Position numbers and translations under genes: made by a program. A DNA stretch of 64,000 bases from an uncultured Lacinutrix sp. (GTDB lineage Bacteria > Bacteroidota > Bacteroidia > Flavobacteriales > Flavobacteriaceae), in contig CAKZMU010000009.1 of assembly GCA_937129145.1 (NCBI GenBank), positions 80,551 through 144,550 of the forward strand. Direction: 5' to 3'. The notes below the pieces were generated by a model. The model searched no databases. It was not told the origin of the DNA and saw only the letters and a program-made list of their open reading frames with translations. This document shows, one piece after another, positions 10,369 to 62,234 of this stretch; the stretch's first letter is position 1; every line of letters begins with the position of its first letter.

Positions 10369-10482
10369 AATTTTAAGTTTTTATATTAATATTTATTTTC
10401 CTATCAAATTTACAATAATGCTTTAAGTTTTGTGTAATTAAGTTATTAAGTTTCCTTATTTTGGTATAAAAATTATCTTTTC

Positions 10483-13400: not shown

Positions 13401-13617
13401 TATTATCACAAAACAAGGCGATATTTTACGTCCCGACAGAATCGTAGTCAACACCAACAACACCGCTACAATTGTAGATTACAAAACTGGTTTGCCAAAT
13501 AATAAGCACATAAAACAAGTAGAGAATTATAATAATGCTCTAAAAGACATGTCTTTTAAAGTTACCAAAGGAATACTTATTTACACAAACGATTCCATAG
13601 AAATAAAAGAAGTGTAA
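10483..13617 (+). CDS. UvrD/Rep-type helicase with a C-terminal PD-(D/E)XK nuclease motif (AddA-like)
   Basis: Walker [10 protein letters not shown], helicase motifs ([17 protein letters not shown]), C-terminal nuclease motif …IVDYKTG. Confidence 0.8.
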
Positions 13618-13619
13618 CT

Positions 13620-14831: not shown

Positions 14832-14957
14832 AACCTTTATAGATACTAGCATTTTAATATAAAAAAGTCAATATTTTCCTATATTTGTCTTTGTTAATAA
14901 ATTTTAACAACTTACTTTTGCTTACAATTAACACTTAAAAATTAAAAATTATAGAAT

Positions 14958-16325
14958 ATGAAAAATCTTAGCAGATTAATGTTCGCTTTGTTGCTAGTAT
15001 TTGGTTTAAGCAGCATAAACGCACAAGACGACAACAATCCTTGGCAATTTGGCATTGGGACTAACGCCGTTGATTTTTATCCAGTTGGAGACAGTTCTCC
15101 TCTTGGTGGTACATTTGAAAAATTCTTTGATACTAGTCACTGGAATATTGGCCCTGTGGTTAATACTTTATCAGTTTCTAGATACCTAGGAGATGATTTC
15201 TCTTTAGGAGCAATCGGATCTTTCAACAGAATTAAAAAGTTTGGAGAAGCTGATGTAGACGGTTTAAGCTACATGGGGTTAGATGGTATTATCAAATACA
15301 GTCTTGGTAATGCTTTAAATTTAGGTAAATTAGAACCTTACTTAGCAGTAGGTGGTGGTTATACTTGGGTTGATAAAATTGGAGCTGGAACAGCTAATGG
15401 ATCATTTGGAATCAACTATTGGTTAACTGAAAATGTTGGACTAAATGTTCAATCTAGCTACAAGCACTCATTCGAAGATTATTTAGCGAAGCATTTCCAA
15501 CATTCATTTGGGGTTTCAGTTAAATTTGGAGGAAAAGATACTGATGGTGATGGCATCTACGACAAAAACGATGCTTGTCCAGAAGTTCCTGGTTTAGAAG
15601 CTTTCAATGGTTGTCCAGATAGCGATGGTGATGGTATTGAAGATTCAAAAGATACATGTCCTAACGAAGCTGGTTTAGCTGAATTTAACGGTTGTCCAGA
15701 TAGTGATGGTGATGGTGTGTCTGACAACAATGATAACTGTCCTAACGTAGCTGGATTAAAATCTTTAGCTGGTTGTCCAGATGCTGATGGCGATGGTGTA
15801 ACTGATGCTAGTGATAAATGTCCTAATGAAGCTGGTCCTTCTGCAAACAACGGTTGCCCTTGGCCAGATACTGATGGTGATGGTGTGTTAGATAAAGACG
15901 ACCAATGTCCTAACGAAGCTGGTACAGTTGCAAATAATGGTTGCCCAGAAATAGTAGTTCCTACTGTTGAGGTTCAAAACCAATTAACTGAATATGCTAG
16001 AACTATTAACTTTAATACTGGTAAGTCTTCTTTTAAATCTGGTACTGAGCCAACTTTACAGGCAATTACTGCCATTTTAAAAGAATACCCTAAAGCTAAC
16101 TTTACTATTGAAGGTCATACAGACAGTACAGGCGGTAAAGCTTTAAACCAAAGGTTATCTGAAGCTAGAGCAAATGCTGTTATGGATTACTTAGTAAATA
16201 ACGGTATCTCTGCTGCAAGATTAACTGCAAAAGGATATGGTCCAGATATGCCTATCGATAATAACAGAACAAGAGCTGGTAGAGCTGCAAACAGACGTGT
16301 TGAAGTGAAGCTTGTTGATATGTAA
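14958..16325 (+). CDS. OmpA-family outer-membrane protein with thrombospondin type-3 (DxDxDG) repeats
   Basis: Signal peptide; six DTDGDG/DSDGDG Ca-binding repeats; C-terminal OmpA domain (TDSTGG…NRRVEV). Confidence 0.85.
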
Positions 16326-16352
16326 TAAGAATATAATTTTAAATTATATACC

Positions 16353-16386
16353 AAAAAACGCTCCGAAATTTCGGAGCGTTTTTTAT
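16353..16386 (+). terminator. Rho-independent terminator after the ompA-like gene
   Basis: AACGCTCCGAaattTCGGAGCGTT hairpin followed by tttttatttt. Confidence 0.75.
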
Positions 16387-16395
16387 TTTTACACA

Positions 16396-19157: not shown

Positions 19158-19994
19158 ATGACTGTCAAAAAAAACATATTAATTCTAGGAAAACACGACA
19201 AACCCATTCTAACCGATTTATATTATTTAGAAGATGGTAAACCCAAACCCATCATAATATTTTGTCATGGGTATAAAGGTTTTAAAGATTGGGGAGCGTG
19301 GAATGTAATGGCAAAAGAATTTGCAACACAAGGATACTGTGTTATAAAATTCAATTTTGCTTATAATGGAGGAACTGTTGAGCAACCTATAGATTTTCCT
19401 AATTTAAATGCCTTTGGAAACAACAATTACACAAAAGAATTAGACGATTTAGACTCGGTACTTAATTGGGTTGAAGCTAATTTAAGTTCAAATAATAACA
19501 TAAACACTAACAATATTACACTTTTAGGTCACAGTCGAGGTGGCGGAATAGTGACCATTAAAGCTGAAGAAGATTCACGAATTTCTAACATAATTTCTCT
19601 AGCTGGAATATGCGATTTTGGTAAGCGAACTGCCACAATTGGAAACTTGGAAGAATGGAAAAAAGAGGGCGTTAAATATGTTTTAAATGGTCGTACTAAA
19701 CAGCAAATGCCACATTTTTATCAATTCTATGAAGATTTTGAGCAAAACAAAGAGCGTCTTACTATAAAAAGAGCTGCTTCAAATTTAAAAATCCCTCATT
19801 TAATCATACATGGAGACGCAGATACGTCCATAGCAATTGAAGAGGCAAAAAACCTCCATCAATGGAACCCTAAAAGTGAATTAAAAATTATTGAAGGTGC
19901 CAATCACGTGTTTAACACCAAACATCCTTGGGAAAGCAGCAAACTGTCTCCTGAACTAGAGACTGTTGTTAAATATATTTTGGATTTTTGTTAG
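19158..19994 (+). CDS. Alpha/beta hydrolase (dienelactone-hydrolase/esterase-like)
   Basis: GHSRGG nucleophile-elbow motif; C-terminal catalytic His region (HGDADTS…ANHVF). Confidence 0.7.
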   Translation: MTVKKNILILGKHDKPILTDLYYLEDGKPKPIIIFCHGYKGFKDWGAWNVMAKEFATQGYCVIKFNFAYNGGTVEQPIDFPNLNAFGNNNYTKELDDLDSVLNWVEANLSSNNNINTNNITLLGHSRGGGIVTIKAEEDSRISNIISLAGICDFGKRTATIGNLEEWKKEGVKYVLNGRTKQQMPHFYQFYEDFEQNKERLTIKRAASNLKIPHLIIHGDADTSIAIEEAKNLHQWNPKSELKIIEGANHVFNTKHPWESSKLSPELETVVKYILDFC

Positions 19995-19995
19995 T

Positions 19996-20069
19996 GGAGA
20001 AGATGGGATTCGAACCCACGACCTCTTGACTGCCAGTCAAGCGCTCTAGCCAACTGAGCTACATCCCCT
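19996..20069 (-). tRNA. tRNA-Ala(GGC)
   Basis: The reverse complement GGGGATGTAGCTCAGTTGGCTAGAGCGCTTGACTGGCAGTCAAGAGGTCGTGGGTTCGAATCCCATCTTCTCCA folds as a cloverleaf with a G3:U70 pair, anticodon loop cuGGCag and a TTCGAAT T-loop; the acceptor stem has one T:T mismatch; no encoded CCA. Confidence 0.8.
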
Positions 20070-29627: not shown

Positions 29628-29700
29628 GACAAGGTGGCTGAACGGTTAAGGCAACAGACTGCAAATCTGTTTTTTGTGAGTTCAAATCTCACCCTTGTCT
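29628..29700 (+). tRNA. tRNA-Cys(GCA)
   Basis: Acceptor GACAAGG/CCTTGTC, anticodon arm ACAGActGCAaaTCTGT, T-arm GTGAGttcaaatCTCAC. Confidence 0.85.
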
Positions 29701-29706
29701 CAAAAT

Positions 29707-29779
29707 AGTATCGTAGCTCAATGGCTAGAGCGCTCGGTTGTCTCCCGAGAAGTTGCGGGTTCGAATCTCGTCGGTACTG
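29707..29779 (+). tRNA. tRNA-Asp(GTC), noncanonical (A1:U72, U37)
   Basis: Acceptor AGTATCG/CGGTACT, D arm GCTCaatggctaGAGC, anticodon arm CTCGGttGTCtcCCGAG, T-arm GCGGGttcgaatCTCGT. Confidence 0.65.
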
Positions 29780-29780
29780 C

Positions 29781-29844
29781 GAAGCAGTTTAAGAGATGAG
29801 AAGTTTACCCTGAGCGTAGTCGAAGGGAATCTTGTCGGTACTGC
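29781..29844 (+). repeat. 46-nt conserved spacer module (…AAGAGATGAGAAGTTTAccCTGAGCGtAGTCGAAGg) followed by an 18-nt direct repeat (17/18 identical) of the tRNA-Asp T-loop-to-3'-end segment
   Basis: gaatctCgtcggtactgc at 29763–29780 recurs as gaatctTgtcggtactgc at 29827–29844; the intervening module is ~85–90% identical to the one at 30183–30226. Confidence 0.8.
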
Positions 29845-29848
29845 AAAT

Positions 29849-29931
29849 CTGGGAGGATAATCCCGAAGGTTCGGGAGTGGTTTACTCGCTTTGGAAGCGA
29901 GAGGTTGTAGGTTCAAATCCTACCTCTCAGA
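29849..29931 (+). tRNA. tRNA-Pro(TGG)-like gene with an aberrant 29-nt D region; possibly a pseudogene
   Basis: Acceptor CTGGGAG/CTCTCAG (one G·U pair), perfect anticodon arm CTCGCttTGGaaGCGAG, perfect T arm GTAGGttcaaatCCTAC. The D region is ~10 nt too long and contains the hairpin TCCCGAaggtTCGGGA. Confidence 0.45.
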
Positions 29932-29937
29932 CAAAAT

Positions 29938-30009
29938 ACTCCGTTAGTCAAATGGCTAAGACGCCTGACTTTCTATCAGGAATTAAGGGTTCAATTCCCT
30001 TACGGAGTA
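29938..30009 (+). tRNA. tRNA-Glu(TTC), noncanonical (A1:U72, U37)
   Basis: Acceptor ACTCCGT/ACGGAGT, anticodon arm CCTGActTTCtaTCAGG, T arm AAGGGttcaattCCCTT. Confidence 0.65.
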
Positions 30010-30014
30010 CACAT

Positions 30015-30100
30015 TGAGATATAGCTTAATTGGTAGAGCGTCGCTCTCATAAGGCGAATGGTTTAGGTTCTCCCGATAGTTATCGGGACTAATATCTCAA
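30015..30100 (+). tRNA. tRNA-Met/Ile2(CAT)-like gene with an 18-nt hairpin insertion in the T loop; possibly a pseudogene
   Basis: Acceptor TGAGATA/TATCTCA, D arm GCTTaattggtaGAGC, anticodon arm TCGCTctCATaaGGCGA. The T region is TTAG-gttc-[TCCCGATAgtTATCGGGA]-CTAA. Confidence 0.45.
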
Positions 30101-30106
30101 CAACAC

Positions 30107-30179
30107 GCAGGAATGGCGAAACGGCAAACGCACTCGACTTAGAATCGAGAAACTGGGAGTTCGAATCTCTCTTCCTGTA
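30107..30179 (+). tRNA. Class-I (short variable arm) tRNA with Leu anticodon TAG
   Basis: Acceptor GCAGGAA/TTCCTGT, D arm GCGaaacggcaaaCGC, anticodon arm CTCGActTAGaaTCGAG, variable region aaact, T arm GGGAGttcgaatCTCTC, A73. Confidence 0.55.
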
Positions 30180-30182
30180 CGA

Positions 30183-30246
30183 AGTAAGGAAAGAGATGAG
30201 AAGTTTATGCTGAGCGAAGTCGAAGTGAATCTCTCTTCCTGTACGA
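30183..30246 (+). repeat. 44-nt conserved spacer module followed by a perfect 20-nt direct repeat of the upstream tRNA's T-loop-to-3'-end segment
   Basis: gaatctctcttcctgtacga at 30163–30182 and again at 30227–30246; the module agtaaggaAAGAGATGAGAAGTTTAtgCTGAGCGaAGTCGAAGt is homologous to 29781–29826. Confidence 0.85.
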
Positions 30247-30247
30247 T

Positions 30248-30321
30248 GCTCCACTAGCCCAAATGGAAGAGGCAACAGTTTTAAGCGCTGTTAAGTCCAA
30301 GTTCGAATCTTGGGTGGAGTA
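30248..30321 (+). tRNA. Class-I tRNA with Leu anticodon TAA
   Basis: Acceptor GCTCCAC/GTGGAGT (G1·U72), anticodon arm ACAGTttTAAgcGCTGT, variable region taagt, T arm CCAAGttcgaatCTTGG, A73. Confidence 0.5.
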
Positions 30322-30327
30322 CAAAAT

Positions 30328-30451
30328 AAGCTTATGGTGTAATGGAAAGCACACAAGGTTTAGCTCATGCATATCTATTTCAAGAAATAGGTATTCGTGA
30401 ATGCAAAGCATTTCGAACCTTGGAGTATGGGTTCAAGTCCTATTAAGCTTA
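30328..30451 (+). tRNA. 124-nt tRNA-like gene carrying a ~52-nt structured insertion in the anticodon loop
   Basis: Acceptor AAGCTTA/TAAGCTT, D arm GTGTaatggaaaGCAC, anticodon stem CAAGG…CCTTG separated by 59 nt, T arm ATGGGttcaagtCCTAT. Mature anticodon TAG if spliced at 37/38, TCG if at 33/34. Confidence 0.45.
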
Positions 30452-30456
30452 CAAAA

Positions 30457-30527
30457 TAACCTGTGGTGTAACGGTAACACTCAAGATTTTGATTCTTGTA
30501 TTATAGGTTCGAATCCTATCAGGTTAT
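30457..30527 (+). tRNA. tRNA-Gln(TTG)
   Basis: U1:A72 acceptor TAACCTG/CAGGTTA, D arm GTGTaacggtaACAC, anticodon arm CAAGAttTTGatTCTTG, T arm ATAGGttcgaatCCTAT. Confidence 0.8.
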
Positions 30528-30535
30528 CAAAAAAT

Positions 30536-30608
30536 GGAACAGTAGCAAAGTTGGTCAATGCGTCGGACTGAAAATCTGAAAATACAGGTTCAATTCCTGT
30601 CTGTTCCA
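30536..30608 (+). tRNA. tRNA-Phe(GAA)
   Basis: Acceptor GGAACAG/CTGTTCC, anticodon arm TCGGActGAAaaTCTGA, T arm ACAGGttcaattCCTGT. Confidence 0.85.
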
Positions 30609-30621
30609 CTAAAATTAAAGA

Positions 30622-50791: not shown

Positions 50792-51382
50792 ATGTTTACT
50801 GGTATTATAGAAGATATTGGAATAGTTACAAATTTAAAGAAAGAAGGAGATAATATTAGTATAACTATTGAAAGTAGTATAACCAACGAATTAAAAATTG
50901 ACCAAAGTGTTGCCCATAACGGTGTTTGTTTAACTGTTGTAAACATAAAAGATAAAGAATATACAGTAACTGCCATTAAGGAAACCATTGATAAATCTAA
51001 CATAGGTGGTCTAATGGTTGGTGGTTTGGTAAACCTAGAAAGAGCCATGAAGCTTGGTGATAGACTCGACGGACATATAGTTCAAGGGCATGTAGACCAA
51101 GTTGCAACTTGTATAGACGCAAAAGAGCTTGATGGAAGTTGGGAATACACTTTTAGGTATGACGCTTCACTAGAAAACATTACCATCGAAAAAGGTTCTA
51201 TCACTGTTAATGGCGTAAGCCTAACTGTGGTTAATTCTAAAAAAGACACTTTTAGCGTCGCTATTATACCTTATACTCACGAGCACACAAATTTTAATAC
51301 TCTAGCAAATGGAACTATTGTTAATTTGGAATTTGATGTAATAGGGAAATACGTGAGCAAGCTTCAGAAAAAGACAGCTTAA
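50792..51382 (+). CDS. ribE: Riboflavin synthase alpha subunit
   Basis: MFTGIIEDIG start; duplicated lumazine-binding halves (VAHNGVCLTV / ITVNGVSLTV). Confidence 0.9.
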   Translation: MFTGIIEDIGIVTNLKKEGDNISITIESSITNELKIDQSVAHNGVCLTVVNIKDKEYTVTAIKETIDKSNIGGLMVGGLVNLERAMKLGDRLDGHIVQGHVDQVATCIDAKELDGSWEYTFRYDASLENITIEKGSITVNGVSLTVVNSKKDTFSVAIIPYTHEHTNFNTLANGTIVNLEFDVIGKYVSKLQKKTA

Positions 51383-51576
51383 CGTTTAGATTTTGATTTA
51401 ATAAAACCTAAATGTTTTATCGCTCCGTAAACAAGTGCTAAGACAAACACAAAAACTACAGCACCGTCAATAGGCAGTCCAACTGGTGGTGGTCCCGAAG
51501 GCGGCGGCGGTACAGGTCCTCCCTGATAGGCGTAAGCCATATTAGAAAAAACAAATAAGATTTGGGTTATTTTCAT
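51379..51576 (-). CDS. 65-aa protein made of a signal peptide, a Pro-rich linker and a C-terminal LPIDG + TM + KSKSKR sorting-signal-like tail
   Basis: MKITQILFVFSNMAYA… GGPVPPPPSGPPPVGLPIDGAVVFVFVLALVYGAIKHLGFIKSKSKR. Confidence 0.4.
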   Translation of the reverse strand: MKITQILFVFSNMAYAYQGGPVPPPPSGPPPVGLPIDGAVVFVFVLALVYGAIKHLGFIKSKSKR

Positions 51577-51935
51577 ATTGTTTTATGAATCATTTTGCTG
51601 TAAAAGTATGAAAAAAAGCGAGTTATCAAAATTTTTACTACAAAAAACACCTATGAAATGCTCAAAAACATCGATTAAGTGCATTCTAGGTTACAATTGA
51701 CACTAACTAATTGACTAAATATTAAAAGAATTAACTGTGTTTATAATCCCTTTGTTATCCCTTAATATGGCAAAAATAAATATTTTGTATGTATTTTCTG
51801 AAATATTTTTGGGTTTATTGATATCGTTTCAAAAAACGATAGGTTAAAATTTGACACTTACTTGTTTGTTAAGTCACTCCTATTTCTGTGAAAACAAAAA
51901 GGTTTTAGTAAAAAAACTAAAACCTTGCTTTTGTT

Positions 51936-51949
51936 GTGGTCCCACTTGG
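51936..51949. repeat. 14-nt direct repeat of the 3' end of the tRNA-Met gene at 61700–61773; putative distal att-like boundary of a ~9.8-kb islet
   Basis: gtggtcccacttgg is identical at 51936–51949 and 61699–61712. Confidence 0.6.
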
Positions 51950-52254
51950 AATACTACTAATTACAATTATAGAGAGTGTTGTGGAGTAATACGGAGTTTC
52001 GAATAGATTTATTGTTTACTGAAAGAGTAATAAAGAATACTATAGATGTATAAAGGTTTGAGCATCGATTGATTTTTTTATCCTTTTTGTCAAAATTAGA
52101 AAGGCCATTCCTACAAAAGAATAGCCTTTTCATTTTTATATTATATCTATGTCTTTCATAATTTCTAAAGAAACAGGTGCTACTGGGTTAGAAATCATTT
52201 TAAATACTTGATAGAATTTTGCTAATTGCCCCATAGCTATATATAATTTCACTT

Positions 52255-53379
52255 TTAATTGCTTACTAAAAATCCAGAGTTAAATGCATACTGATTCCAT
52301 TTTGGCAATGGATGAAATTCACTCGCCTGCACATCTCTAAACAAACGTTCTAATTCATTTTTACTGTAATAACTTCCACCTCCAATAAGCTCCATGGCAT
52401 ATTTAACTGTGTCAATACAAGCCTCGCTTACATTTGTTTTTAAGCTTAGAATTTCTGATGATAGTTGTTTGGAAGGTGAGAATTCGAGTTCATCTGTACG
52501 TTCATACATGGCTTTCCATTGTACTTTGGCGCTTAAAAATGCATTGTCCAATTTACCTAATACATAAGGCATATGACCTTGATTTGATGTGTTGTTCTTA
52601 GCAAAATTGATGGCAATTTCTCTAGCACGTTCAGCAATACCAATATAAGCAGACATTATTAATGGCATAGCCACTGTGATTACAATATTCCAAACATTAT
52701 GAAACTCATCTTGTGGTCTTTCTAAAGCAATCGCGCTATCTGGAACAAACACGTCTTTTAAAACTACGGTTTGAGAACCTGTTGCTCTCATTCCCATAAC
52801 ATGCCAATCGTCTAATAGACTTAATCCTTCTGTTTTAAAAGGCACTCCAAAATGCAATACTTTGCGCTCACCTCTTTCATTTTCATAAGGTGCTGAAGTC
52901 ACTAATATGTTTCCTGTAGCTGACTGACTCGCAAATGCCTTTTTTGCATTTACCAAATAACCACCCTCTACTTTAGTCATTTCTCCATTAGAACCCAACC
53001 AATCTCTTGCACCTGTACTTACAAGTACTAATTGATTATCTGCAACATTAGCCAATAATGGTTTGCCTGTGTTTTTATGTTTGTATTTCCAAACTGTAGC
53101 AGCCACAAGGTGTTGATGCATTGAAAACGCTAAAGCTGTTGAACCACAATTATTTCCAAATAGTCTAATAATATTACATACTTCAGAGTAAGGCAAACCT
53201 GCTCCTCCTAATTCTTCTGGAACCATTAAAGAGAAAAACTCATTCGCTTTTAACTTCTCGTAATTTTCATAAATGAATTCACCTGTTTTATCTTTTTCTG
53301 ATGCATATTCTGCAAAAGATTGTGCTAAATCATTAGCTATTTTATTCCAATCTGTATTATTTGATGTTACTGTATTCAT
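52255..53379 (-). CDS. Acyl-CoA dehydrogenase-family flavoprotein
   Basis: 374 aa; ACAD-like middle and C-terminal domains. Confidence 0.6.
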   Translation of the reverse strand: MNTVTSNNTDWNKIANDLAQSFAEYASEKDKTGEFIYENYEKLKANEFFSLMVPEELGGAGLPYSEVCNIIRLFGNNCGSTALAFSMHQHLVAATVWKYKHKNTGKPLLANVADNQLVLVSTGARDWLGSNGEMTKVEGGYLVNAKKAFASQSATGNILVTSAPYENERGERKVLHFGVPFKTEGLSLLDDWHVMGMRATGSQTVVLKDVFVPDSAIALERPQDEFHNVWNIVITVAMPLIMSAYIGIAERAREIAINFAKNNTSNQGHMPYVLGKLDNAFLSAKVQWKAMYERTDELEFSPSKQLSSEILSLKTNVSEACIDTVKYAMELIGGGSYYSKNELERLFRDVQASEFHPLPKWNQYAFNSGFLVSN

Positions 53380-53414
53380 TATTTCTTGTTTTTTATGATT
53401 AATCCTTTTGATGT

Positions 53415-54923
53415 TTATTGGTTTTGTAATTGTAATACGCTGTCGGTTAGCATCTGTTGATGCACTTTATTACCTTCTTCTTCAACAATATCAATGATCT
53501 CTTCAATGTCTTTTTTAGACGTTCTAAAATTGACGATGCAGCTTCTTAAGCAATAATTTTCGTTGATAATAGCATTAGAAATAAACACTTCTCCGCTTTT
53601 TTGTAATCGCGTTGTTAGTTTTTCGTTTAACTCATTTAAGTACACTTGTTTATTTTCTAAATGTTGAGGTATTTCTGAAGGTATATACCTAAACGTCGCG
53701 ATACTTAAACTTTGGGTTACTGCATCAAGGTTTGGGTGTTGATCTGCTAATTCAAATAATAATTTAGACAACTTTATATCTTCAGATATCATTTCTTGAT
53801 AACCTTGTCTTCCTACTTGCTGAAGCATTAACCATACTTTTAATGCTCTAAATCCTCTAGAATTTTGAAGTCCGTATTCATAATAATTTTGTTCAGCATC
53901 TTCTGTATCAAAATTGAAATACTCTGGATGTGAACTATATGCATCAGTTAAATGTTTTGGGTTTTTAACCAAAGTACAACCAGCTTCTAACGGACTATAC
54001 AACCATTTGTGTGGGTCGATCGCAATAGAGTCTGCTTCTTTTATACCTTTAAAAGTTGCTTCTAATTCTGGAATAATATTGGCTGGTGCACCATAAGCTC
54101 CATCAACGTGAAACCACATATGATACAATTTACAAATGGCCGAAATACCTTCTAAATTATCGACTGTTCCTGTGCTTACATCACCAGCAGTACCAACTAC
54201 AAAAAAGGGTTCATTGCCTTCAATAATATCTGTTGTGATTGCGTTTTCTAATGCTTCTAAATTCATTTTATTATCCGCATCAGTTTCTATCCATCTAATT
54301 GCATTTGTTCCGTGTCCAAATAAAATGGCAGCTTTATCTATCCATGTATGTGTTGACTTTGAACAATACATGATTAGTTTTTTCTTCAAAGAACCAAGGC
54401 CTTCTTCTTTAATATTGGCTGGTGCTTTAGCTGTTCGTGCCGCAAGAAATGCTGTGAAATTTGCCATGTTCCCACCACTAACTAACACACCTCCATAATT
54501 AGATTCTACTCCAATAAATTGTGCTAGCCATTGTATGGTTTGCTTTTCAATTTCTGTTGCCATTGGTGATAATGCAAATGCGCCAACGTTAGGGTTTACC
54601 GAAGCTGCTAACAAATCTCCTAATGCTCCAATTGGTGCTGCTGAACCTGTGATATAACCCATAAATTTTGGGTGGCCATTAAATAATGAATGGTTATACA
54701 ATAAATCTGTAGCTTTCTCTAATAAAACTGATGCAGAGGTTCCGTTTTCTGGAAATGATTGATTACCTAATAGCGACTGTAACTGCTTTGGTGTTTCGCC
54801 AGTCGTAACTGGTCGCTCCGAAATAGTTTCGTTAAAACCAGAGATACTATCTATTAAGTTATGTCCTAAAGATTTAAATTCTTTAGCTGTTAATTCTAAT
54901 GGTGCTTTTCTATTATTCTCCAT
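53415..54923 (-). CDS. PLP-dependent amino-acid decarboxylase (group II: aromatic-L-amino-acid / glutamate / tyrosine decarboxylase family)
   Basis: 502 aa; fold-type I decarboxylase blocks (IDPHKW…, SGGNMANF). Confidence 0.75.
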   Translation of the reverse strand: MENNRKAPLELTAKEFKSLGHNLIDSISGFNETISERPVTTGETPKQLQSLLGNQSFPENGTSASVLLEKATDLLYNHSLFNGHPKFMGYITGSAAPIGALGDLLAASVNPNVGAFALSPMATEIEKQTIQWLAQFIGVESNYGGVLVSGGNMANFTAFLAARTAKAPANIKEEGLGSLKKKLIMYCSKSTHTWIDKAAILFGHGTNAIRWIETDADNKMNLEALENAITTDIIEGNEPFFVVGTAGDVSTGTVDNLEGISAICKLYHMWFHVDGAYGAPANIIPELEATFKGIKEADSIAIDPHKWLYSPLEAGCTLVKNPKHLTDAYSSHPEYFNFDTEDAEQNYYEYGLQNSRGFRALKVWLMLQQVGRQGYQEMISEDIKLSKLLFELADQHPNLDAVTQSLSIATFRYIPSEIPQHLENKQVYLNELNEKLTTRLQKSGEVFISNAIINENYCLRSCIVNFRTSKKDIEEIIDIVEEEGNKVHQQMLTDSVLQLQNQ

Positions 54924-54950
54924 GATGTTTTGTTTTAAAACGTTTAATTA

Positions 54951-55295
54951 TTAAGCCGCTGTTATTAAAATGCGTTCTATACCAGCAAAGCAATTATTCA
55001 TTATAATCCTGTGTTCTTTTTTTGCTCTTACTAGAAGATTTTTTACTTCAAAAAGAAATGCTTGTAATTGATTTTTTGAGTAGTTTTTATCTTCTATTGC
55101 TTTGCATATTTTCTGAATGCCTTGATAATCATTATCAGCATTAAACTCGGTTTGCATTTTATTAATTTCAGTTTCACTAATATGAATAGAGGTGAAATCG
55201 ATATGATTCTTTTTTGTGAAATTTGAATGCATTAAAAATAAAAGCAGATACACTTTTAGTTCTTCTGTTGTCCATGTTGGTTTATGATTTTTCAT
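54951..55295 (-). CDS. Hypothetical protein
   Basis: 114-aa ORF; no recognisable motif. Confidence 0.35.
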   Translation of the reverse strand: MKNHKPTWTTEELKVYLLLFLMHSNFTKKNHIDFTSIHISETEINKMQTEFNADNDYQGIQKICKAIEDKNYSKNQLQAFLFEVKNLLVRAKKEHRIIMNNCFAGIERILITAA

Positions 55296-55315
55296 GACTT
55301 TGGTACTTTTAAATT

Positions 55316-56170
55316 TTAATTACAGTTTTCGCCAAAAGCTGAGAAACCATCAATACCTGATGACCAGTTTGCATTACTATAAATAGCATCATCTACTTCA
55401 ATACAATAAAGGTTAGAATTAGACCTTGCTTCAAAATCGGTTAAGCTTCCATTGTTTCCATTCTTTACACTTAGGTTTGTTAGTTGATTATTAGAGACGT
55501 CTAAGTCTTCTAATAAACTGTTTTGGCTTAAATCTAATTCTGTAAGTTGATTATGAGCTACTTTAAACCAATACAAATTCGCACTATTCGTAACATCTAT
55601 ACTGGTTAAAAGGTTATTAGAAGTACCTAATCTTACAAGATTTATATTATTTGCTACATCTAAATCTGTTAATTGGTTATTATCGCAGATTAATACCTCT
55701 AAATTTATGTTGCTTCTAACGTCAATACTCGTTAGACTATTTATATAAGCACTAACAGTTTTCAATTCTAAATTGTTACTTAAATCTAAACTTGTAAGCT
55801 GATTGTCTTCTGTATTTAAATTACTTAACTTTAGATTATCGCTTACATCTAAATTGGTTAAACTATTACCATAACATTCTAACACTTCAAGGTTTGTAAA
55901 TGCATCTATACCTTGTAAACTACTAATGTTTTTCTCTGAAACATCTAACTGAATTACAGCTTCGGCATCTGTGATTAAAATGGTTCCGTTTAAGCCATTG
56001 GTATCTATCCCTAAATCGATTAGGGCTTGTTCAAAATTTGAGTCTGGAATGTTGACTTCCGTTCTTTCTGTTTTTTCTACATCATCATCGTTTTTACTGC
56101 ATGATGAGAACATTGTTAGAGCCATTAATAGGCTTAAAATTGTACGATTTGTTGTATTAAGTGATTTCAT
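55316..56170 (-). CDS. Leucine-rich-repeat lipoprotein; a single module of the type repeated four times in the downstream gene
   Basis: Lipoprotein signal (…LTMFSSCSK); ~22-aa LxxLxLxxNxLTxLD(V/L)SxN repeats; C-terminal CIEVDDAIYSNANW…ENCN cap. Confidence 0.7.
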   Translation of the reverse strand: MKSLNTTNRTILSLLMALTMFSSCSKNDDDVEKTERTEVNIPDSNFEQALIDLGIDTNGLNGTILITDAEAVIQLDVSEKNISSLQGIDAFTNLEVLECYGNSLTNLDVSDNLKLSNLNTEDNQLTSLDLSNNLELKTVSAYINSLTSIDVRSNINLEVLICDNNQLTDLDVANNINLVRLGTSNNLLTSIDVTNSANLYWFKVAHNQLTELDLSQNSLLEDLDVSNNQLTNLSVKNGNNGSLTDFEARSNSNLYCIEVDDAIYSNANWSSGIDGFSAFGENCN

Positions 56171-56255
56171 TATTTATTGTTTTAAATTTGATTTTTGAGT
56201 ATAGGAAGCCACCAAACCTATGACGGCTTCCAAAATTTTTAATATGTGATTTGAA

Positions 56256-59200
56256 TTAGTTTACGACCAGTTTCTTTACTGTTTCGCCTAAATTATTTTT
56301 GATATTTACTAAATATATTCCCGAAGGGATTTGACTAACATTAACAGATTGATTGTTGTTAATTGTTGTTGCCAAAATGCTCCTTCCGTTGAAATCATAG
56401 ATTTTTATTTGCGAATCTTCTTGAAGCCCTTTTACATAAAATACCTCTGATGATGGGTTTGGATATAGACTTACAGTATCAAATATGGATTCTTCATTTA
56501 CTCCTAATGATTCACAATTTTCATCAAAACTTGTTTGCGCATCTATATAACTACTCCAAAGTGCGGTACTGTAAGGTGCGTTATCTACTTGAATACAATA
56601 CAGATTGGGATTATTATCTGCTTCAAAATCAGTAATGATAGTGTTATTGCCATTTTTAACATTAAAACTTGTTAGTTGGTTATTGGCAGCATATATTTCA
56701 ATTAGCACTGTATGATTATTTAAATCCATACTTGTTATTTGATTACTTGCAAAACTTAATTCCTCTAAATCAAGATTGTTACTAATATCTAATGTTGTTA
56801 GTTGATTTTCATACAACTCCAGATATGTTAAATCTGGATTATTACTTACATTTATATTTGTAAGTTGACATGTAGAACATGTTAATGATTCTAATAAAAT
56901 GTTGTTAGATACATCTAAACTACCAATTGCATTTCCGCCTGCGTGCAATTCTTTTAATGCTATATTATTTGATATATTTAAACTTGTTAAATCATTATTA
57001 TTACATATTAATATTTCCAAATCTTCAAGACTATTAATGCCTTCCAGATCTTCAATATCATTATTTCCAATTCGTAATTCTATTAAATTTATAAAGCCTT
57101 CTATTCCTGTTGCATTTGAAATATTTTCATTACCTACATCTAGACTTATTACTGCTTCTGCTTCCGACTGAAGAATATTTCCTGTTAAACCATTATTATC
57201 ATATCCTAAATCGATTAAGGCTTGTTCAAAATTTACATCTGGAATAGCAATAGTTGGAAACGGAACGCTACAGTCTTCGCTAAAATTTGTTTGTGGGTCT
57301 ATAAAGGCACTCCAATTTGCATTACTATAGGCAACATCATCTACTTCAATACAGTATAGACTTGGGTTGTTTGTTGCATAGACTCCATCTATATTAACAT
57401 TATTTCCATTTTTTACATTAAGGTTGGTAAGTTGATTATTAGTTATTGATAATTCAAACAATTGAAGATTATTACTAGCATCCATATTTGTAATTTGGTT
57501 ATAACCAATAAGTATTGAAGATAATGCTGTATTGTTTTCAATATTTAAAACTGTTAGTTGATTATTATCTGCTAGCAACTCGTACATGACCATATTGTTC
57601 CCAAGCAATAGTGTTGTTAATTGATTATGACTGCAATCCAATTGTGCAAGCGCTAAATTATTACTTACATCTAAGCTCGTAAGATTATTGTTTTCACATT
57701 GTAGGGCGCTTAAATTTGTAAAGCCTTCAATTCCTAAAAGACTAGAAATATTTTTATTGTTAACATTAAGATTTGTTACCGCTTCGGCTTCACTTTGTAA
57801 AATATCACCTGTAAATCCATTAGTGTCTATACCTAAATCTATGAGTGCTGTTTCAAAATTATCATCTGGAATAGCAATGGTTGGCGCAGATGCATTACAA
57901 TCTTCACTAAAACTAGTTTGTGCATCAATATTCGTCCAATTCGTATTACTATACGCAACATTATCTACATCAATACAAGTTAAATTAGAATTATTTGTTG
58001 TGCTTATACTCGTAAGCATCGTGTTGTTTCCATTTTTTAAGTTTAAACTTGTTAAATTATTATTAGCACAACTAAAAACTGCTAATGCAGGATTATTACT
58101 CAAATCTAAACTTGCTAATTGGTTTCCCCAAACCCTAAAATCTTCTAACAATATGTTATTGCTAACATCTATACTTAAAATTTCTCCATCAGAACAACGT
58201 AATTCTTTTAAATTAATATTCGTATTTACGTTTAAACTGGTGAATAAATTGCTATAACATTGAAGGTATTCTAATGCAGTTGCATTGCTAACATTCAAAT
58301 TAGTAATATCGTTACTATAGCAATACAATGTTTGTAATAAAGAAAGGTTACTTACATCTAAACTTGTGAGTTCATTAGAATGTACATACATAGTTTCTAA
58401 TACAGTATTGTTGCTTACATTTAGATTAGTTAACTGATTAAAAGGCACACTCAAATAAGTTAATAGTGTATTACTACTTATATCTAAACTCGTTAATTGA
58501 CTATTTATGGCTATTAAATATGTTAAGGATGTATTATTGCTAATATCTATACTTGACAGGTTATTGTTACTACAATCTAACGTTTGCAAAGCAGTATTAC
58601 TGCTTAAATTTAAACTCGTCAAATTGTTGTTACTACAAACAATACTAGTAACATTAACAAAACCTTCTATACCTTGTAGAGAATTGATGCCTTTATTATT
58701 TAGTGCTAACGTGTTTACAGCCTCGGCATCAGATTGTAAAATAAGACCATTTATTGTTCCATCACTGTCTTGACCAGCGTCTATAAGTGCTTGTTCAAAA
58801 TTAGAATCTGGAATAGCGACTGTTTGTGCAGTTGTTGCTGCTATAGAAAACATAGTAAATAACATCCAAAACATAGTTTTGCTTTTCAACTTATTCACAC
58901 GTTTTAAATACTCTTTTTTTGTATTGCTTTTTTTAGGAAATGGAACATACATAGGTGTATTTTCTACATAATGCTTATAAAGGTTTCCAAATTCTTTTCG
59001 TAAATCTTTTTCTTCAAAAAAGGTTCCTATAATGAAATATGCCGATAAGAAAATGGCAAAAACAAGATGAGTTCCTGTCATAACTGGTGTAGCCCAAAGT
59101 CCCAACATGCCTCCAAAATAAATTGGATGTCTCATGTACTTATAAAACCCAACCACTTCAAAATTTAATGGTTTATAAGGTTTTTTCATGATCTCGAAAT

Positions 59201-59657
59201 ACACTTGTCTCAAACCAAAGAAATCTAAGTGGTTAATTAAAAATGTACTGATAAATAGAATAGACCATCCAATAAAAAAAAGAGCATACATAAAGTAATT
59301 TAGAGTAATATTAGAAGACACGTCCCATAATAAACCGCCTAATGGTTGCCATTGTATAACCAAAAAGAATAGCAATAAACCAGAGACTAAAATAAAAGTG
59401 CTGCGTTCTATAGCTCTTGGAAAATAGCTAGAGAAAAAATCTTTGAACCATGGTCTTGCCATGATGCTGTGCTGCACTCCAAAAAGAGCAACTAAAACTA
59501 AGTTGTTAAGTAGTGCTAATAAGAATGGCACTCTTGGTTCTTGGTCGATAGATATTTCAGGTATTAAATGACTTACTGATAATATCCAGTATACGATAGA
59601 GGCAAAGCCAACTAAATAGGCCGCGATTGAATAGATTAACATTGTAAAACTTTTCAT
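56256..59657 (-). CDS. 1133-aa fusion ORF: N-terminal ICMT/PEMT-like membrane methyltransferase domain, four tandem ~220-aa LRR modules and a T9SS C-terminal sorting domain
   Basis: N-terminal RHPIYFGGMLGLW motif with multiple TMs; an internal signal-peptide-like Met (MFWMLFTMFSIAATTAQ, ~58877) in the same frame with no intervening stop; four AIPDSNFEQALID…C(I/T)(D/E)VD(D/N)VAYSN modules; C-terminal YPNPSSEVFYV…GIYLVNI tail. Confidence 0.65.
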   Translation of the reverse strand: MKSFTMLIYSIAAYLVGFASIVYWILSVSHLIPEISIDQEPRVPFLLALLNNLVLVALFGVQHSIMARPWFKDFFSSYFPRAIERSTFILVSGLLLFFLVIQWQPLGGLLWDVSSNITLNYFMYALFFIGWSILFISTFLINHLDFFGLRQVYFEIMKKPYKPLNFEVVGFYKYMRHPIYFGGMLGLWATPVMTGTHLVFAIFLSAYFIIGTFFEEKDLRKEFGNLYKHYVENTPMYVPFPKKSNTKKEYLKRVNKLKSKTMFWMLFTMFSIAATTAQTVAIPDSNFEQALIDAGQDSDGTINGLILQSDAEAVNTLALNNKGINSLQGIEGFVNVTSIVCSNNNLTSLNLSSNTALQTLDCSNNNLSSIDISNNTSLTYLIAINSQLTSLDISSNTLLTYLSVPFNQLTNLNVSNNTVLETMYVHSNELTSLDVSNLSLLQTLYCYSNDITNLNVSNATALEYLQCYSNLFTSLNVNTNINLKELRCSDGEILSIDVSNNILLEDFRVWGNQLASLDLSNNPALAVFSCANNNLTSLNLKNGNNTMLTSISTTNNSNLTCIDVDNVAYSNTNWTNIDAQTSFSEDCNASAPTIAIPDDNFETALIDLGIDTNGFTGDILQSEAEAVTNLNVNNKNISSLLGIEGFTNLSALQCENNNLTSLDVSNNLALAQLDCSHNQLTTLLLGNNMVMYELLADNNQLTVLNIENNTALSSILIGYNQITNMDASNNLQLFELSITNNQLTNLNVKNGNNVNIDGVYATNNPSLYCIEVDDVAYSNANWSAFIDPQTNFSEDCSVPFPTIAIPDVNFEQALIDLGYDNNGLTGNILQSEAEAVISLDVGNENISNATGIEGFINLIELRIGNNDIEDLEGINSLEDLEILICNNNDLTSLNISNNIALKELHAGGNAIGSLDVSNNILLESLTCSTCQLTNINVSNNPDLTYLELYENQLTTLDISNNLDLEELSFASNQITSMDLNNHTVLIEIYAANNQLTSFNVKNGNNTIITDFEADNNPNLYCIQVDNAPYSTALWSSYIDAQTSFDENCESLGVNEESIFDTVSLYPNPSSEVFYVKGLQEDSQIKIYDFNGRSILATTINNNQSVNVSQIPSGIYLVNIKNNLGETVKKLVVN

Positions 59658-59826
59658 GATTATTTATTTTTAAGTTCGAGACAAACATATTCACGAAAAG
59701 AGTGGATAGCACAAAATTTAATGGATACAAATGGGTGACAAGCGCCTAATTTACGGATGACAAATGGGTGACGAAAAGAAAAATAAATTTATTAACTAAT
59801 TAGTAATCAGTATTTTAATAAATTAA

Positions 59827-61596
59827 TTAAAATGTTTTTAAAAAAGCGTCTAAATCTTCTTCAGGTGACAGATTAAGTTTTTTTCTGAGCCTGTTTCGGC
59901 TCTTTTTTACGGAAGAAGGGTTGATATTTTGAAGTGCTGCTATCTGTTTTGTATCTAAATCTAGTTTGATTAATGAACATAATCTTATTTCCGTTTTGGT
60001 TAAACCTTCAAATTGAGTGGTTAACTTATCATAGAACGAACTGCTTAACGCATCTATTTTGGTATAAAAGTCATCTGCACTTTTATCAACCCAAATTTTG
60101 TTTTTTATTTCGGTATCTAATTCCTCTAACTCTTTGGCGCGTTTTCTGCCTGTTGAGGTTTTTAGATTCTCCATACGTTCTGCTAAAGACAAAGCCCATT
60201 CTTGGTTATTAGATATATTAACAGCAAAATTGGTAAGGTCTTTTTTCTTATATTCTATTTCTGAGTTTAATAATTTATTCTGTAAGTCTTTATATTTCAC
60301 ACGTTGTTTATATCGATAGTATAGTAAACTCATTAAGAAAATAGCAGCTAGACTTCCAAAAATTATCCATTGGCTTTTTGCTCTGTTTTTTGTGTTAAGT
60401 AATGAAATCTCTGATTCTTGAGTTTTAAGTTTTTCCTCTGCAATACGCGCTTCTTTAGCTTTAACAATACTGTCTAATCGCATGGTTTTAGCAAATTCCA
60501 TTTGCTGCAACTGCTTACCAACTTCATCTTTTTTTAAGCTATCATTTAAAGTGGCCATTTCTTCATGATATTCTAAAGCTTTAACTTTATTACCTAAAGC
60601 TTTGTATCCACGATATAGACAATCACAAGCGTTTTTCTTTTGTATTAGACTATTTAATTCGAATGCAATTTTGTAACTTCTTGTACAAGTTTCAATACTT
60701 TTTGAATATGCTTTTTGCTCGAGATAAAGTTCACCTAAGTCGATAACAGTTTCGGATATTAATGGTAGACTCCCTATTTTTTCACGAAGCGCTAAGCTTC
60801 TATTGTAATAATTTAATGCCTCCTTAAGACTTCCTTTTTTTTGATAAACATCACCAATATAACCTAGTGATATTGCTTTATTTCTTGCCAATTTAAGTTC
60901 GCTTGTTCGCTTTAAACTTCTATTAAAATAGTCAAGAGCCAAATTATAATCTGCTTGTTTTAAGTAGGACTTCCCTATATTATTGAGAGTTAATGAATTA
61001 TTCTTATCAATTTCCAAACAACGTTGAAAATAGGTTATTGCTTTCTCACTATTACCTTGATCATAATATAAATCACCAATGGTATTTAAAGTAAAAAATG
61101 TTCTGTTGTTATCTCCTAGTTCTTCACGGATTTTCAGGCTTTTTTGTAAGTAATTTAAAGCTTTTATACCATTGCCTATATCACTATAAACGATTCCAAA
61201 TTTATTGTAAGTTGCTGCTATACCTTCTTTATCTCCTAGTTCTTTTTCAATAACAAGTTCTTTTTCAAAATGTCTAAGCGATTCTATATAATTTCCCTTA
61301 ACCCAATTTGCTGTCCCTAAAGCTTTGTGTGCATGAGCAATGTGCTTTTTAGACTTGATATTTGTCGCATAATCGTATTCTATTTTTCCATAGTATATTG
61401 TACTGTCTGGTTCGGTAAATACTATATTCCAAGAGTACTCTCCTAAGGCATTTAACCTTAAACTATCTTGCTTAGTTATATCGTTCCAAACGGATAAAAG
61501 AGAATCCATCTCTATGTCAAAATCAGTTTTATTTTCTTGACCAAAAGAAGAATAGCTAATCAAAAGAAGAAAAAAAAGTATGGCTCGTTTAAACAT
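59827..61596 (-). CDS. TPR-repeat, single-TM regulator with a C-terminal LuxR-type HTH
   Basis: Signal/TM, ~8 TPR units, a TM (WIIFGSLAAIFLMSLLYY), C-terminal LuxR HTH (…TKQIAALQNINPSSVKKSRNRLRKKL). Confidence 0.7.
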   Translation of the reverse strand: MFKRAILFFLLLISYSSFGQENKTDFDIEMDSLLSVWNDITKQDSLRLNALGEYSWNIVFTEPDSTIYYGKIEYDYATNIKSKKHIAHAHKALGTANWVKGNYIESLRHFEKELVIEKELGDKEGIAATYNKFGIVYSDIGNGIKALNYLQKSLKIREELGDNNRTFFTLNTIGDLYYDQGNSEKAITYFQRCLEIDKNNSLTLNNIGKSYLKQADYNLALDYFNRSLKRTSELKLARNKAISLGYIGDVYQKKGSLKEALNYYNRSLALREKIGSLPLISETVIDLGELYLEQKAYSKSIETCTRSYKIAFELNSLIQKKNACDCLYRGYKALGNKVKALEYHEEMATLNDSLKKDEVGKQLQQMEFAKTMRLDSIVKAKEARIAEEKLKTQESEISLLNTKNRAKSQWIIFGSLAAIFLMSLLYYRYKQRVKYKDLQNKLLNSEIEYKKKDLTNFAVNISNNQEWALSLAERMENLKTSTGRKRAKELEELDTEIKNKIWVDKSADDFYTKIDALSSSFYDKLTTQFEGLTKTEIRLCSLIKLDLDTKQIAALQNINPSSVKKSRNRLRKKLNLSPEEDLDAFLKTF

Positions 61597-61699
61597 TATG
61601 AATTTTAGTTGGTTGTGATTGAAAAATACTTGCTCTAAGGTAAAGAAAAATATAACGAAGAAAAAAGCCTCTCATTTCTGAAAGGCTTGTGTTTAAAAG

Positions 61700-61773
61700 T
61701 GGTCCCACTTGGGCTCGAACCAAGGACCCTCTGATTATGAGTCAGATGCTCTAACCAACTGAGCTATGGGACC
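61700..61773 (-). tRNA. tRNA-Met(CAT) (elongator Met or Ile2-lysidine type; not distinguishable by eye)
   Basis: The reverse complement GGTCCCATAGCTCAGTTGGTTAGAGCATCTGACTCATAATCAGAGGGTCCTTGGTTCGAGCCCAAGTGGGACCA is a canonical cloverleaf with anticodon loop ctCATaa. Confidence 0.85.
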
Positions 61774-61820: not shown

Positions 61821-62234
61821 TTATTCTTTATTAGTACGCTCTTGGCACAGCTCAATTAACACACCGTTTGTCGATTTTGGATGTAAAAAAGCGACCAACT
61901 TATTATCGGCTCCTTTTTTAGGTTTATTGTTTAAAATAGTAAAGCCTTCTTCTTTTAATCGTTTTATTTCTTTTTCAATATCATCTACATCAAACGCTAT
62001 GTGGTGTATGCCTTCGCCCTTTTTCTCAATAAATTTTGCAATTGGGCTGTCTTCGTTAGTCGCTTCTAAAAGCTCAATTTTATTCTCTCCTACCTTAAAA
62101 AATGATGTTTTAACGCCTTCGCTTTCTACCGATTCTGTTTTATAATGTGGTTCACCAAAAAGTTTTTCAAACAACTCATTGGACGTTTCAATGTTTTTTA
62201 CCGCAATTCCTATATGTTCAATTTTATTCATCAT
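61821..62234 (-). CDS. Methylmalonyl-CoA epimerase (VOC/glyoxalase superfamily)
   Basis: 137 aa; VOC metal-ligand pattern (HIGIAV…, EL). Confidence 0.7.
   Translation of the reverse strand: MMNKIEHIGIAVKNIETSNELFEKLFGEPHYKTESVESEGVKTSFFKVGENKIELLEATNEDSPIAKFIEKKGEGIHHIAFDVDDIEKEIKRLKEEGFTILNNKPKKGADNKLVAFLHPKSTNGVLIELCQERTNKE

Follow-up and report, generated by a model that had tools for sequence, protein, structure and literature searches.

A 9.8-kb islet of six genes lies directly downstream of a tRNA-Met gene in the window analysed here, a 64-kb stretch of contig CAKZMU010000009.1 from an uncultured Lacinutrix species (Flavobacteriaceae). The islet occupies positions 51936–61712 of the window and is bounded by a 14-nt direct repeat of the tRNA 3′ end. 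Relatives carry the same site without the six genes, the same 14 nt bound integrase-bearing elements in other genera, and four of the six genes have relatives in the variable part of a mobile element. We consider it likely that the islet is the decayed remnant of a tRNA-targeting, site-specific integrative element, which would have kept its attachment (att) cores while its recombination/backbone module was deleted.

Insertion at a conserved tRNA-Met site

Synteny was compared across 80 Flavobacteriaceae/Bacteroidota loci obtained from a scan of genome collections with methylmalonyl-CoA epimerase (mce); loci and contigs are hereafter labelled by L numbers. Most of the 80 loci keep the linkage between mce and tRNA-Met. 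Nineteen have an empty site with the order FtsX, rbfA, mce, tRNA-Met, a small Pro-rich open reading frame (ORF), ribE and pdxA, which is colinear with both flanks of the window and leaves a gap of 76–680 bp between tRNA-Met and ribE. Empty sites are found in Algibacter, Lacinutrix, Winogradskyella, Tamlana, Flaviramulus, Aquaticitalea, Sungkyunkwania and Flavobacterium, among other genera, and in none of the 80 loci do the six islet genes stand beside tRNA-Met. Because the empty arrangement is present in 19 relatives, the block of six genes was inserted immediately behind the 3′ end of tRNA-Met. A preliminary description of the window had interpreted the region as an islet inserted at a tRNA, had proposed to look for an empty site in related genomes and had held that the same gene order beside tRNA-Met in all relatives, with no repeat, would speak against an islet; the empty site exists, and the shared gene order does not.

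The syntenic anchor on the tRNA side of the window is the gene for methylmalonyl-CoA epimerase (61821–62234, minus strand), identified by TIGR03081 at 155 bits (cutoff 115) and by synteny, and on the distal side it is the riboflavin synthase gene ribE (50792–51382, plus strand), identified by Pfam Lum_binding and by synteny. The small ORF of the empty sites corresponds to a 65-aa ORF (51379–51576, minus strand) that lies outside the islet. In empty sites, this ORF is 138 to ~350 bp from the tRNA; in the window, 359 bp separate it from the distal copy of the repeat, which sits where the tRNA end would be in an empty site.

A 14-nt core shared with integrase-bearing elements

The integration target is an intact tRNA-Met(CAT) gene on the minus strand (61699–61773), found by ARAGORN and by Rfam RF00005 at 73 bits. 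An initiator tRNA is ruled out by the pairing of positions 1 and 72 together with an anticodon stem that does not have GGG/CCC, and the gene encodes either an elongator tRNA-Met or a tRNA-Ile2 of the lysidine type. The 14-mer GTGGTCCCACTTGG is present in the window as two exact plus-strand copies, a tRNA-proximal one at 61699–61712, in the position of an attL-type crossover region, and a distal, attR-type one at 51936–51949 in the same orientation. No third copy occurs on either strand of the window when up to two mismatches are allowed, and dinucleotide shuffles yield a mean of 0.13 matches to the 14-mer at the same tolerance. On the tRNA strand, the repeat reads as CCAAG from the 3′ strand of the T-stem, TGGGACC from the 3′ strand of the acceptor stem, the discriminator A and one flanking C. 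Identity between the two copies ends at exactly 14 nt on both sides; a pseudo-tRNA or a longer degenerate repeat at the distal copy was considered and rejected, as no similarity extends beyond the 14 nt. The distal copy is a direct repeat situated downstream of where the tRNA ends, the arrangement expected of an attL/attR pair. On the two same-orientation copies and their coordinates, the parts of the tRNA that they cover and the placement of the distal copy, exact search and the tRNA-strand reading agree with the preliminary description throughout.

The window is AT-rich, and 96 distinct 14-mers recur directly in it more than 200 nt apart (0.30% of start positions). Among these, GTGGTCCCACTTGG is the sole repeated 14-mer with at least 60% G+C. 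By our own arithmetic, which uses base composition alone, the chance of finding this 14-mer in ~60 kb is ~2 × 10−5. The odds of about 1 in 4,000 offered earlier presume a uniform base composition and call for qualification; the 14-mer stands apart as the only G+C-rich repeat. Judged from the window alone, the repeat is suggestive, short of decisive.

Every locus of the comparison set was examined for further copies of the 3′ end of the tRNA that it carries. Exact cores in the same orientation are found downstream of the tRNA in L003, L051, L065 and L040, with a 16-nt match in L026. In Mangrovimonas aestuarii (L003, element at 10535–17339) and in Arenibacter sp. (L051, 10706–18248), the repeat is CCAGGTGGGACCAC, covers the 14 tRNA positions that are repeated in the window and lies 6.8 kb and 7.5 kb downstream, respectively; to the base, the 14 nt of the window are the segment that bounds these two integrase-bearing elements. 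The element of Tamlana fucoidanivorans (L026, 10533–16553) has a 16-nt repeat with a one-base offset 6.0 kb downstream, Saonia (L065) has two cores 170 bp apart, and in Psychroserpens (L040) a duplication of at least 47 nt, comprising the tRNA 3′ end and its terminator, is located 1.3 kb downstream. Beside the distal core, the elements of L003, L026 and L051 each encode a tyrosine integrase with Arm-DNA-bind_5, SAM_5 and Phage_integrase domains, ~71% identical to one another, and they also encode an HTH_17 protein and a Rep protein (ORF2/G2P type, PF23343). Both ends of these elements have paired GGGGACGA-N3-4-GGGGACGA repeats that resemble arm-type sites. The repeat covaries with the host tRNA, being CCAGG in these hosts and CCAAG in the window. 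The mce-linked tRNA-Met is a genuine recurrent integration site. As for the matching tyrosine integrase that the preliminary description had proposed to search for, none is present in the window, but three other genera have one at the orthologous tRNA together with the same core.

Controls across ~60 loci show no core match with up to two mismatches in the ~10 kb upstream of the tRNA, and on the opposite strand a single two-mismatch match, downstream in L078. Loci with an empty site have no second same-orientation core at up to two mismatches. In three Myroides loci (L031, L038 and L053, ~10470–10700), tRNA-Met itself is present in two or three tandem copies downstream of mce. Apart from these tandem tRNAs, core copies occur only downstream, in the same orientation, and only in occupied or remnant loci, and the 14-mer is not spread over many loci, the outcome that had been named earlier as telling against an att site.

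The distal 14-mer could in principle be a chance match, the six genes having been gained without any part played by the tRNA, for example by homologous recombination in the flanks after transformation or conjugation. Such a coincidence would draw on the shortness of the repeat and the 96 other direct 14-mer repeats in the window, one of which, an AT-rich 14-mer, overlaps tRNA-Phe by chance, and it would need neither a recombinase nor arm sites, which the islet does not have. It would leave to chance, however, that the only G+C-rich repeated 14-mer of the window lies on the correct side of the tRNA, in the correct orientation and as far from the small ORF and ribE as empty sites lead one to expect, that a tRNA-style terminator follows the distal copy, and that the boundaries are equal to the base to those of the element repeats in L003 and L051, while ~60 loci have no exact equivalent repeats upstream or on the other strand. 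We regard it as very improbable.

The site also accommodates other elements. A second family at the same tRNA (L035, 10561–19535; L079; L071) has the gene order 284-aa ORF, HTH_17, 297-aa ORF, integrase, AAA_24 and DUF3871, with a GmrSD-type restriction nuclease as cargo in L035. In L026, an L002-like attL arm past the distal core (16538–16640) indicates tandem accretion. The islet itself was rejected as a member of the L003 family, having no GGGGACGA repeats and, by tblastn, no genes in common with it. A phage origin of the L003-type Rep is unsupported, with no tblastn match in INPHARED, and the L003-type integrase shares no more than 34% identity with integrases of Bacteroidales plasmids.

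Decay at this site is recurrent. The two cores of Saonia (L065, 10696–10908) are a near-complete deletion remnant, a Rep fragment is retained beside the tRNA in L037, and integrase-less insertions of 2–5.5 kb lie between the tRNA and the small ORF in L007, L009 and L020, with cargo that includes MORN, HTH_3, response regulator, DUF4130 plus radical SAM, and tetratricopeptide repeat (TPR) proteins. The islet of the window, with both cores retained and no other repeat common to its ends, fits this pattern.

Cargo genes and their relatives

All six genes of the islet are on the minus strand and tightly packed. Starting from the tRNA, the first (59827–61596) encodes a membrane-anchored TPR regulator with a weak C-terminal helix-turn-helix of the LuxR/GerE type, as judged by Pfam and the translation. 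It is followed by a single ORF of 1133 aa (56256–59657), in which Pfam, NCBIfam and the translation distinguish an MddA/PEMT-like membrane methyltransferase and a leucine-rich repeat (LRR) protein targeted to the type IX secretion system (T9SS). The methyltransferase region spans approximately aa 1–245, with the MddA-like part at aa 3–239 (NF045656, 228 bits, under the 270-bit cutoff); the LRR part is fused to it in frame with no intervening stop, and retains a separate signal peptide, from M262, as well as a C-terminal sorting domain for the T9SS. The same 1133-aa fusion is called in an independent metagenome contig, L090. Next come an LRR lipoprotein (55316–56170; Pfam LRR_4, lipobox FSSC), a 114-aa hypothetical protein (54951–55295) that has no Pfam or NCBIfam family above threshold and travels with the gene after it, a group II pyridoxal phosphate (PLP)-dependent decarboxylase (53415–54923; Pfam Pyridoxal_deC, E = 2e-66) and, as the last gene of the islet, a flavoprotein of the acyl-CoA-dehydrogenase (ACAD) fold (52255–53379; Pfam), SfnB/DszC-like by weak NCBIfam matches. 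The preliminary description had listed the two LRR proteins, the flavoprotein, the decarboxylase, the hypothetical and the TPR-LuxR regulator correctly, and had overlooked the N-terminal MddA/PEMT-like module of the large LRR ORF. It had also noted that an integrase and an excisionase are missing: Pfam detects no integrase, excisionase, Rep, RteC or relaxase among the six islet proteins, and tblastn with integrase (three of the queries), excisionase, RteC and Rep homologues finds no match across the 64 kb.

Close relatives of the tRNA-distal cargo are found on the metagenome contigs L084–L086, where a protein 89% identical to the ACAD protein is encoded and where LRR, hypothetical, PLP decarboxylase and ACAD genes match window positions 56189–52253 at 78–81% nucleotide identity. 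The PLP decarboxylase is 78–82% identical in L084 and L085, and the LRR lipoprotein is 51% identical to a 261-aa LRR protein of L084. The homology with L084 stops at the ACAD stop codon (window position 52253); beyond ACAD, L084–L086 have RteC and HTH_17, and L084 continues with additional genes. This RteC/HTH_17 backbone is widespread in Flavobacteriaceae, with other cargo upstream of RteC in L088 and L089. A tandem arrangement of an island and an integrative and conjugative element (ICE) in L084 was considered and rejected, as there is no core between ACAD and RteC even at three mismatches. This ties four of the six cargo genes to the part of a mobile element in which cargo varies, and suggests that a backbone of the RteC/HTH_17 kind was lost at the distal end of the islet.

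Units of the cargo also occur elsewhere. Homologues of the TPR-LuxR regulator (40–43% identity) head clusters of TPR, MddA-like and ACAD genes in L083 (7302–11119) and L087 (7259–11122), in which a stand-alone MddA-like gene of 244–254 aa lies between the TPR regulator and ACAD, with no LRR or decarboxylase gene. From the families of its products, this cluster of TPR-LuxR, MddA-like and ACAD-fold (SfnB/DszC-like) genes may be an organosulfur module. In Psychroserpens sp. AS72 (L091, 9624–11485), a pair consisting of a 115-aa hypothetical gene and a PLP decarboxylase gene is found near an AraC regulator, OsmC and pyruvate:ferredoxin oxidoreductase, suggesting that this pair is a functional unit independent of the island.

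This scattering bears on whether the islet was ever one element. If the interval from tRNA-Met to the small ORF and ribE were a general hotspot filled by several insertions, a composite, the distal 14-mer would be the attR scar of another, deleted element, for example of the L003 type, and the six genes would stem from separate events of tandem accretion, homologous recombination or nested insertion. The separate occurrence of the cargo units speaks for this, as do the missing stop codon of the MddA-like gene at the LRR junction, which suggests nested insertion, the tandem accretion in L026, the unrelated integrase-less insertions in the same interval of L007, L009 and L020, and a tetranucleotide deviation confined to the middle of the islet. 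Set against it, the six genes share one orientation, are tightly packed and have a single terminator, and there is no internal copy of the core even at two mismatches. The mosaic could moreover predate the transfer and have arisen in the donor, as the variable cargo upstream of RteC in L084, L088 and L089 suggests. On balance, a composite origin seems unlikely, and the remnant of a single integrated element is the reading that we carry forward.

In composition, the islet differs mildly from its surroundings. It has 31.2% G+C versus 34.3% in the rest of the window, and G+C at third codon positions (GC3) is under the background mean in all six genes (z of −1.5 to −2.5). The strongest tetranucleotide deviation of the window is at 53–61 kb, with z up to 3.4; Tandem Repeats Finder reported nothing. 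The composition profile proposed at the outset gives a mixed answer, with an AT shift, low GC3 and a tetranucleotide peak on one side and, on the other, a mild signal that is centred on the LRR gene and a normal codon preference. A signal of this kind fits acquisition from another AT-rich flavobacterium.

Probable decay, possible mobility and known counterparts

The distal end of the islet is 305 bp of non-coding DNA (51950–52254), in which the ORF listing has no entry and tblastn finds no integrase, Rep, HTH_17 or RteC. It is part of an ORF-free stretch of 678 bp (51577–52254) that spans the distal repeat; the 650-bp non-coding stretch of the preliminary description exists, therefore, with a somewhat greater length and straddling the repeat, so that less than half of it belongs to the islet. 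A remnant of an integrase in the 305 bp was rejected for want of an ORF or a tblastn match, and so was a hidden non-coding RNA in the non-coding stretch, the tRNA being the only Rfam match. We infer that the 305 bp are the deletion scar of the lost recombination/backbone module.

Three hairpins, all on the minus strand, mark the ends of the islet. A terminator-like hairpin inside it (52100–52129) closes the cargo operon. A second hairpin (AAGCCTTTCAGAAATGAGAGGCTTTTTT; 61660–61689) comes just after the tRNA and may have been supplied by the element, and a third (51899–51926) lies 10 nt past the distal core and may be the original terminator of the tRNA, displaced by the insertion. The hairpin past the distal core (CCACAACAAAAGCAAGG...; CCACAACAAAAGC...) resembles the junctions between tRNA and terminator in the empty sites L078, L063, L067 and L075, and the hairpin past the intact tRNA (AAGCCTTTC...GAGAGGCTTTTTT) resembles those of the occupied loci L028, L035 and L057. 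Classified by regular expression, AAGCC-type hairpins are present in 17 of 30 occupied versus 4 of 19 empty loci (Fisher p = 0.019). The terminator classes lend weak support to the exchange of downstream arms that integration is expected to bring about.

In the sequence of events that we propose, a tyrosine recombinase of the Bacteroidota type would have recombined the attP of the element with the 14-nt core CCAAGTGGGACCAC in the 3′-terminal part of the chromosomal tRNA-Met. Integration would have rebuilt the tRNA and supplied an element-borne terminator, pushing a copy of the 14-nt core and the original tRNA terminator ~9.8 kb downstream, towards ribE. A later deletion at the distal end would have removed the integrase, an HTH_17/excisionase-like gene and, by analogy with L084, RteC, leaving the 305-bp scar and six cargo genes in one orientation, which would now be fixed as ordinary accessory genes.

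Several observations weigh against this account. The repeat is only 14 nt long, and repeated 14-mers are generally not rare in this AT-rich 64-kb window. The nearest empty-site relatives are ~75% identical to the window in nucleotide sequence in the flanks, and on the ribE side detectable homology reaches to 51685 and no further, so that synteny alone cannot place the distal boundary to the base. The islet ends have no arm-type repeats, no shared repeats and no GGGGACGA (GGGGACG) motif; together with the missing integrase, excisionase and relaxase, this means that the islet is not directly tied to any particular recombinase. The cargo is a mosaic, with units apart in L083, L087 and Psychroserpens, which may make a single arrival doubtful, and in L084 the cargo and RteC have no att core between them. 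Hairpins like the one beside the tRNA also occur in three loci classed as empty (L004, L036 and L070). Finally, the codon preference of the islet genes is not atypical, and the tetranucleotide deviation has its centre at the LRR gene, which is internally repetitive and may be its sole source.

The population data come from metagenome contigs. L081, L082 and L090 match the window at 99.9–100% identity and include either the distal junction or interior parts of the island. Exact-protein look-ups with ribE and the PLP decarboxylase as queries yielded these island-bearing contigs only and none from an island-free strain of the same species, and those with the ACAD protein, mce, the TPR-LuxR regulator and P0361 of the window returned no contigs. 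An empty site would read ...GGGACCAC|AACAAAAGCAAGG..., that is, ...TTCGAGCCCAAGTGGGACCAC followed directly by AACAAAAGCAAGGTTTTAGTTTTTTTACTAAAACC, or CTTGCTTTTGTTGTGGTCCCACTTGGGCTCGAACC on the plus strand, and a circular attP junction would read GGCTTGTGTTTAAAAGTGGTCCCACTTGGAATACTACTAATTAC on the plus strand. The attB, attR and attP junctions have no match in JGI metagenome contigs, from which the occupied junction is absent too, so that this search is uninformative.

Cis-mobilizable elements (CIMEs) are decayed ICEs or integrative and mobilizable elements that keep attL and attR, a class defined for Streptococcus elements; by definition they have lost their integration and transfer genes, and they can move with an ICE (PMC5704250). 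By that definition (PMC5704250), the gene content and repeats of the islet would make it structurally a CIME. It has direct repeats of the target 3′ end and no integration and transfer genes, and its site hosts intact elements of the same specificity as well as, in the relative L026, a tandem accretion. It differs in that the 14-nt core alone is demonstrably kept and in that its host is a marine-type member of the Flavobacteriaceae and not a Firmicute. The earlier verdict of a degraded island or CIME-like remnant holds for the structure, in which the core repeats remain and genes for recombination are missing, with 'CIME-like' to be taken in the structural sense only.

As a special case of the remnant that we favour, the islet might still be excised and re-integrated in trans by an integrase with the same core specificity, as an active CIME. 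Its two 14-nt cores are intact, with no difference between them; the same core serves at least one family of integrases, and another family is directed to the same tRNA. Neither end has recognisable arm-type sites, however, no cognate integrase is encoded within the 64 kb, and no attB/attP junction was found in the uninformative JGI scan. Excision in trans is a prediction for an islet with no recognisable arm sites, and we consider it doubtful. As a speculation to which we attach little weight, the 14-nt core might be a Flavobacteriaceae-wide docking site for unrelated families of elements, among them the small elements with Rep and integrase, the AAA_24/DUF3871/defence elements and possibly the RteC-type ICEs, with integrase-less cassettes still exchangeable in trans. 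If so, the locus would be akin to a natural cassette-exchange site for accessory genes, including the organosulfur module of MddA-like and ACAD-fold genes.

Very short cores are familiar from this phylum, the common core of NBU1 being ~14 bp. The NBU1 and NBU2 mobilizable elements of Bacteroides integrate at the 3′ end of tRNA-Leu or tRNA-Ser (PMC5704250). The islet is similar to them in its phylum, in targeting a tRNA 3′ end, in its very short core and in the Bacteroidota type of tyrosine integrase found in the related L003, L026 and L051 elements. Its target, in contrast, is tRNA-Met, and the intact relatives encode an ORF2/G2P-like Rep and not a MobP relaxase. The six ORFs have no Pfam domains of an IntN1-like integrase or Mob relaxase of the NBU type; an oriT was not searched for. 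The 10K genomic island of Riemerella anatipestifer, at tRNA-Arg, excises, encodes a functional IntN1-like integrase and is bounded by a 53-bp repeat; some strains have it and some lack it (PMC6764341). That island shares with the islet a size of ~10 kb, a host in the Flavobacteriales, a position downstream of a tRNA and direct repeats; the islet differs from it in its 14-nt repeat and in having no integrase. The closest likeness in cargo is with the RteC/HTH_17 elements of Flavobacteriaceae, which have a CTnDOT-like regulatory module: four of the six cargo genes are ~80% identical in nucleotide sequence to genes directly upstream of RteC in L084–L086, whereas the window has no RteC, HTH_17 or other backbone gene.

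According to this analysis, 9.8 kb of a Flavobacteriaceae genome are accessory DNA gained by horizontal transfer, and the tRNA-Met linked to mce is a hotspot at which integration recurs, with a crossover core defined to 14 nt, in many marine Flavobacteriaceae genera. This should aid island prediction in a phylum in which very short att cores defeat standard repeat-based finders. The loci also provide candidate integrase/att pairs for genetic tools, and the defined core and the two integrase-bearing families at tRNA-Met may be of use to those who specialise in mobile elements of flavobacteria. No concept is changed by this islet, since decayed islands at tRNA genes are common.

Two further features of the window were recorded. 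The 65-aa ORF between tRNA-Met and ribE, conserved in at least 25 Flavobacteriaceae loci, encodes a signal peptide, the motifs PPPPxPPPP and GLPIDG, a transmembrane helix and a basic K/R tail; it matches no NCBIfam family, NCBIfam being the one collection scanned, and by these features its product looks like a free-standing, sorting-signal-like peptide. At 29628–30609 on the plus strand, seven tRNA genes (Cys, Asp, Glu, Leu-TAG, Leu-TAA, Gln and Phe) are grouped within 1 kb, and a tRNA-Ala gene lies apart from this group, at 19994–20068.

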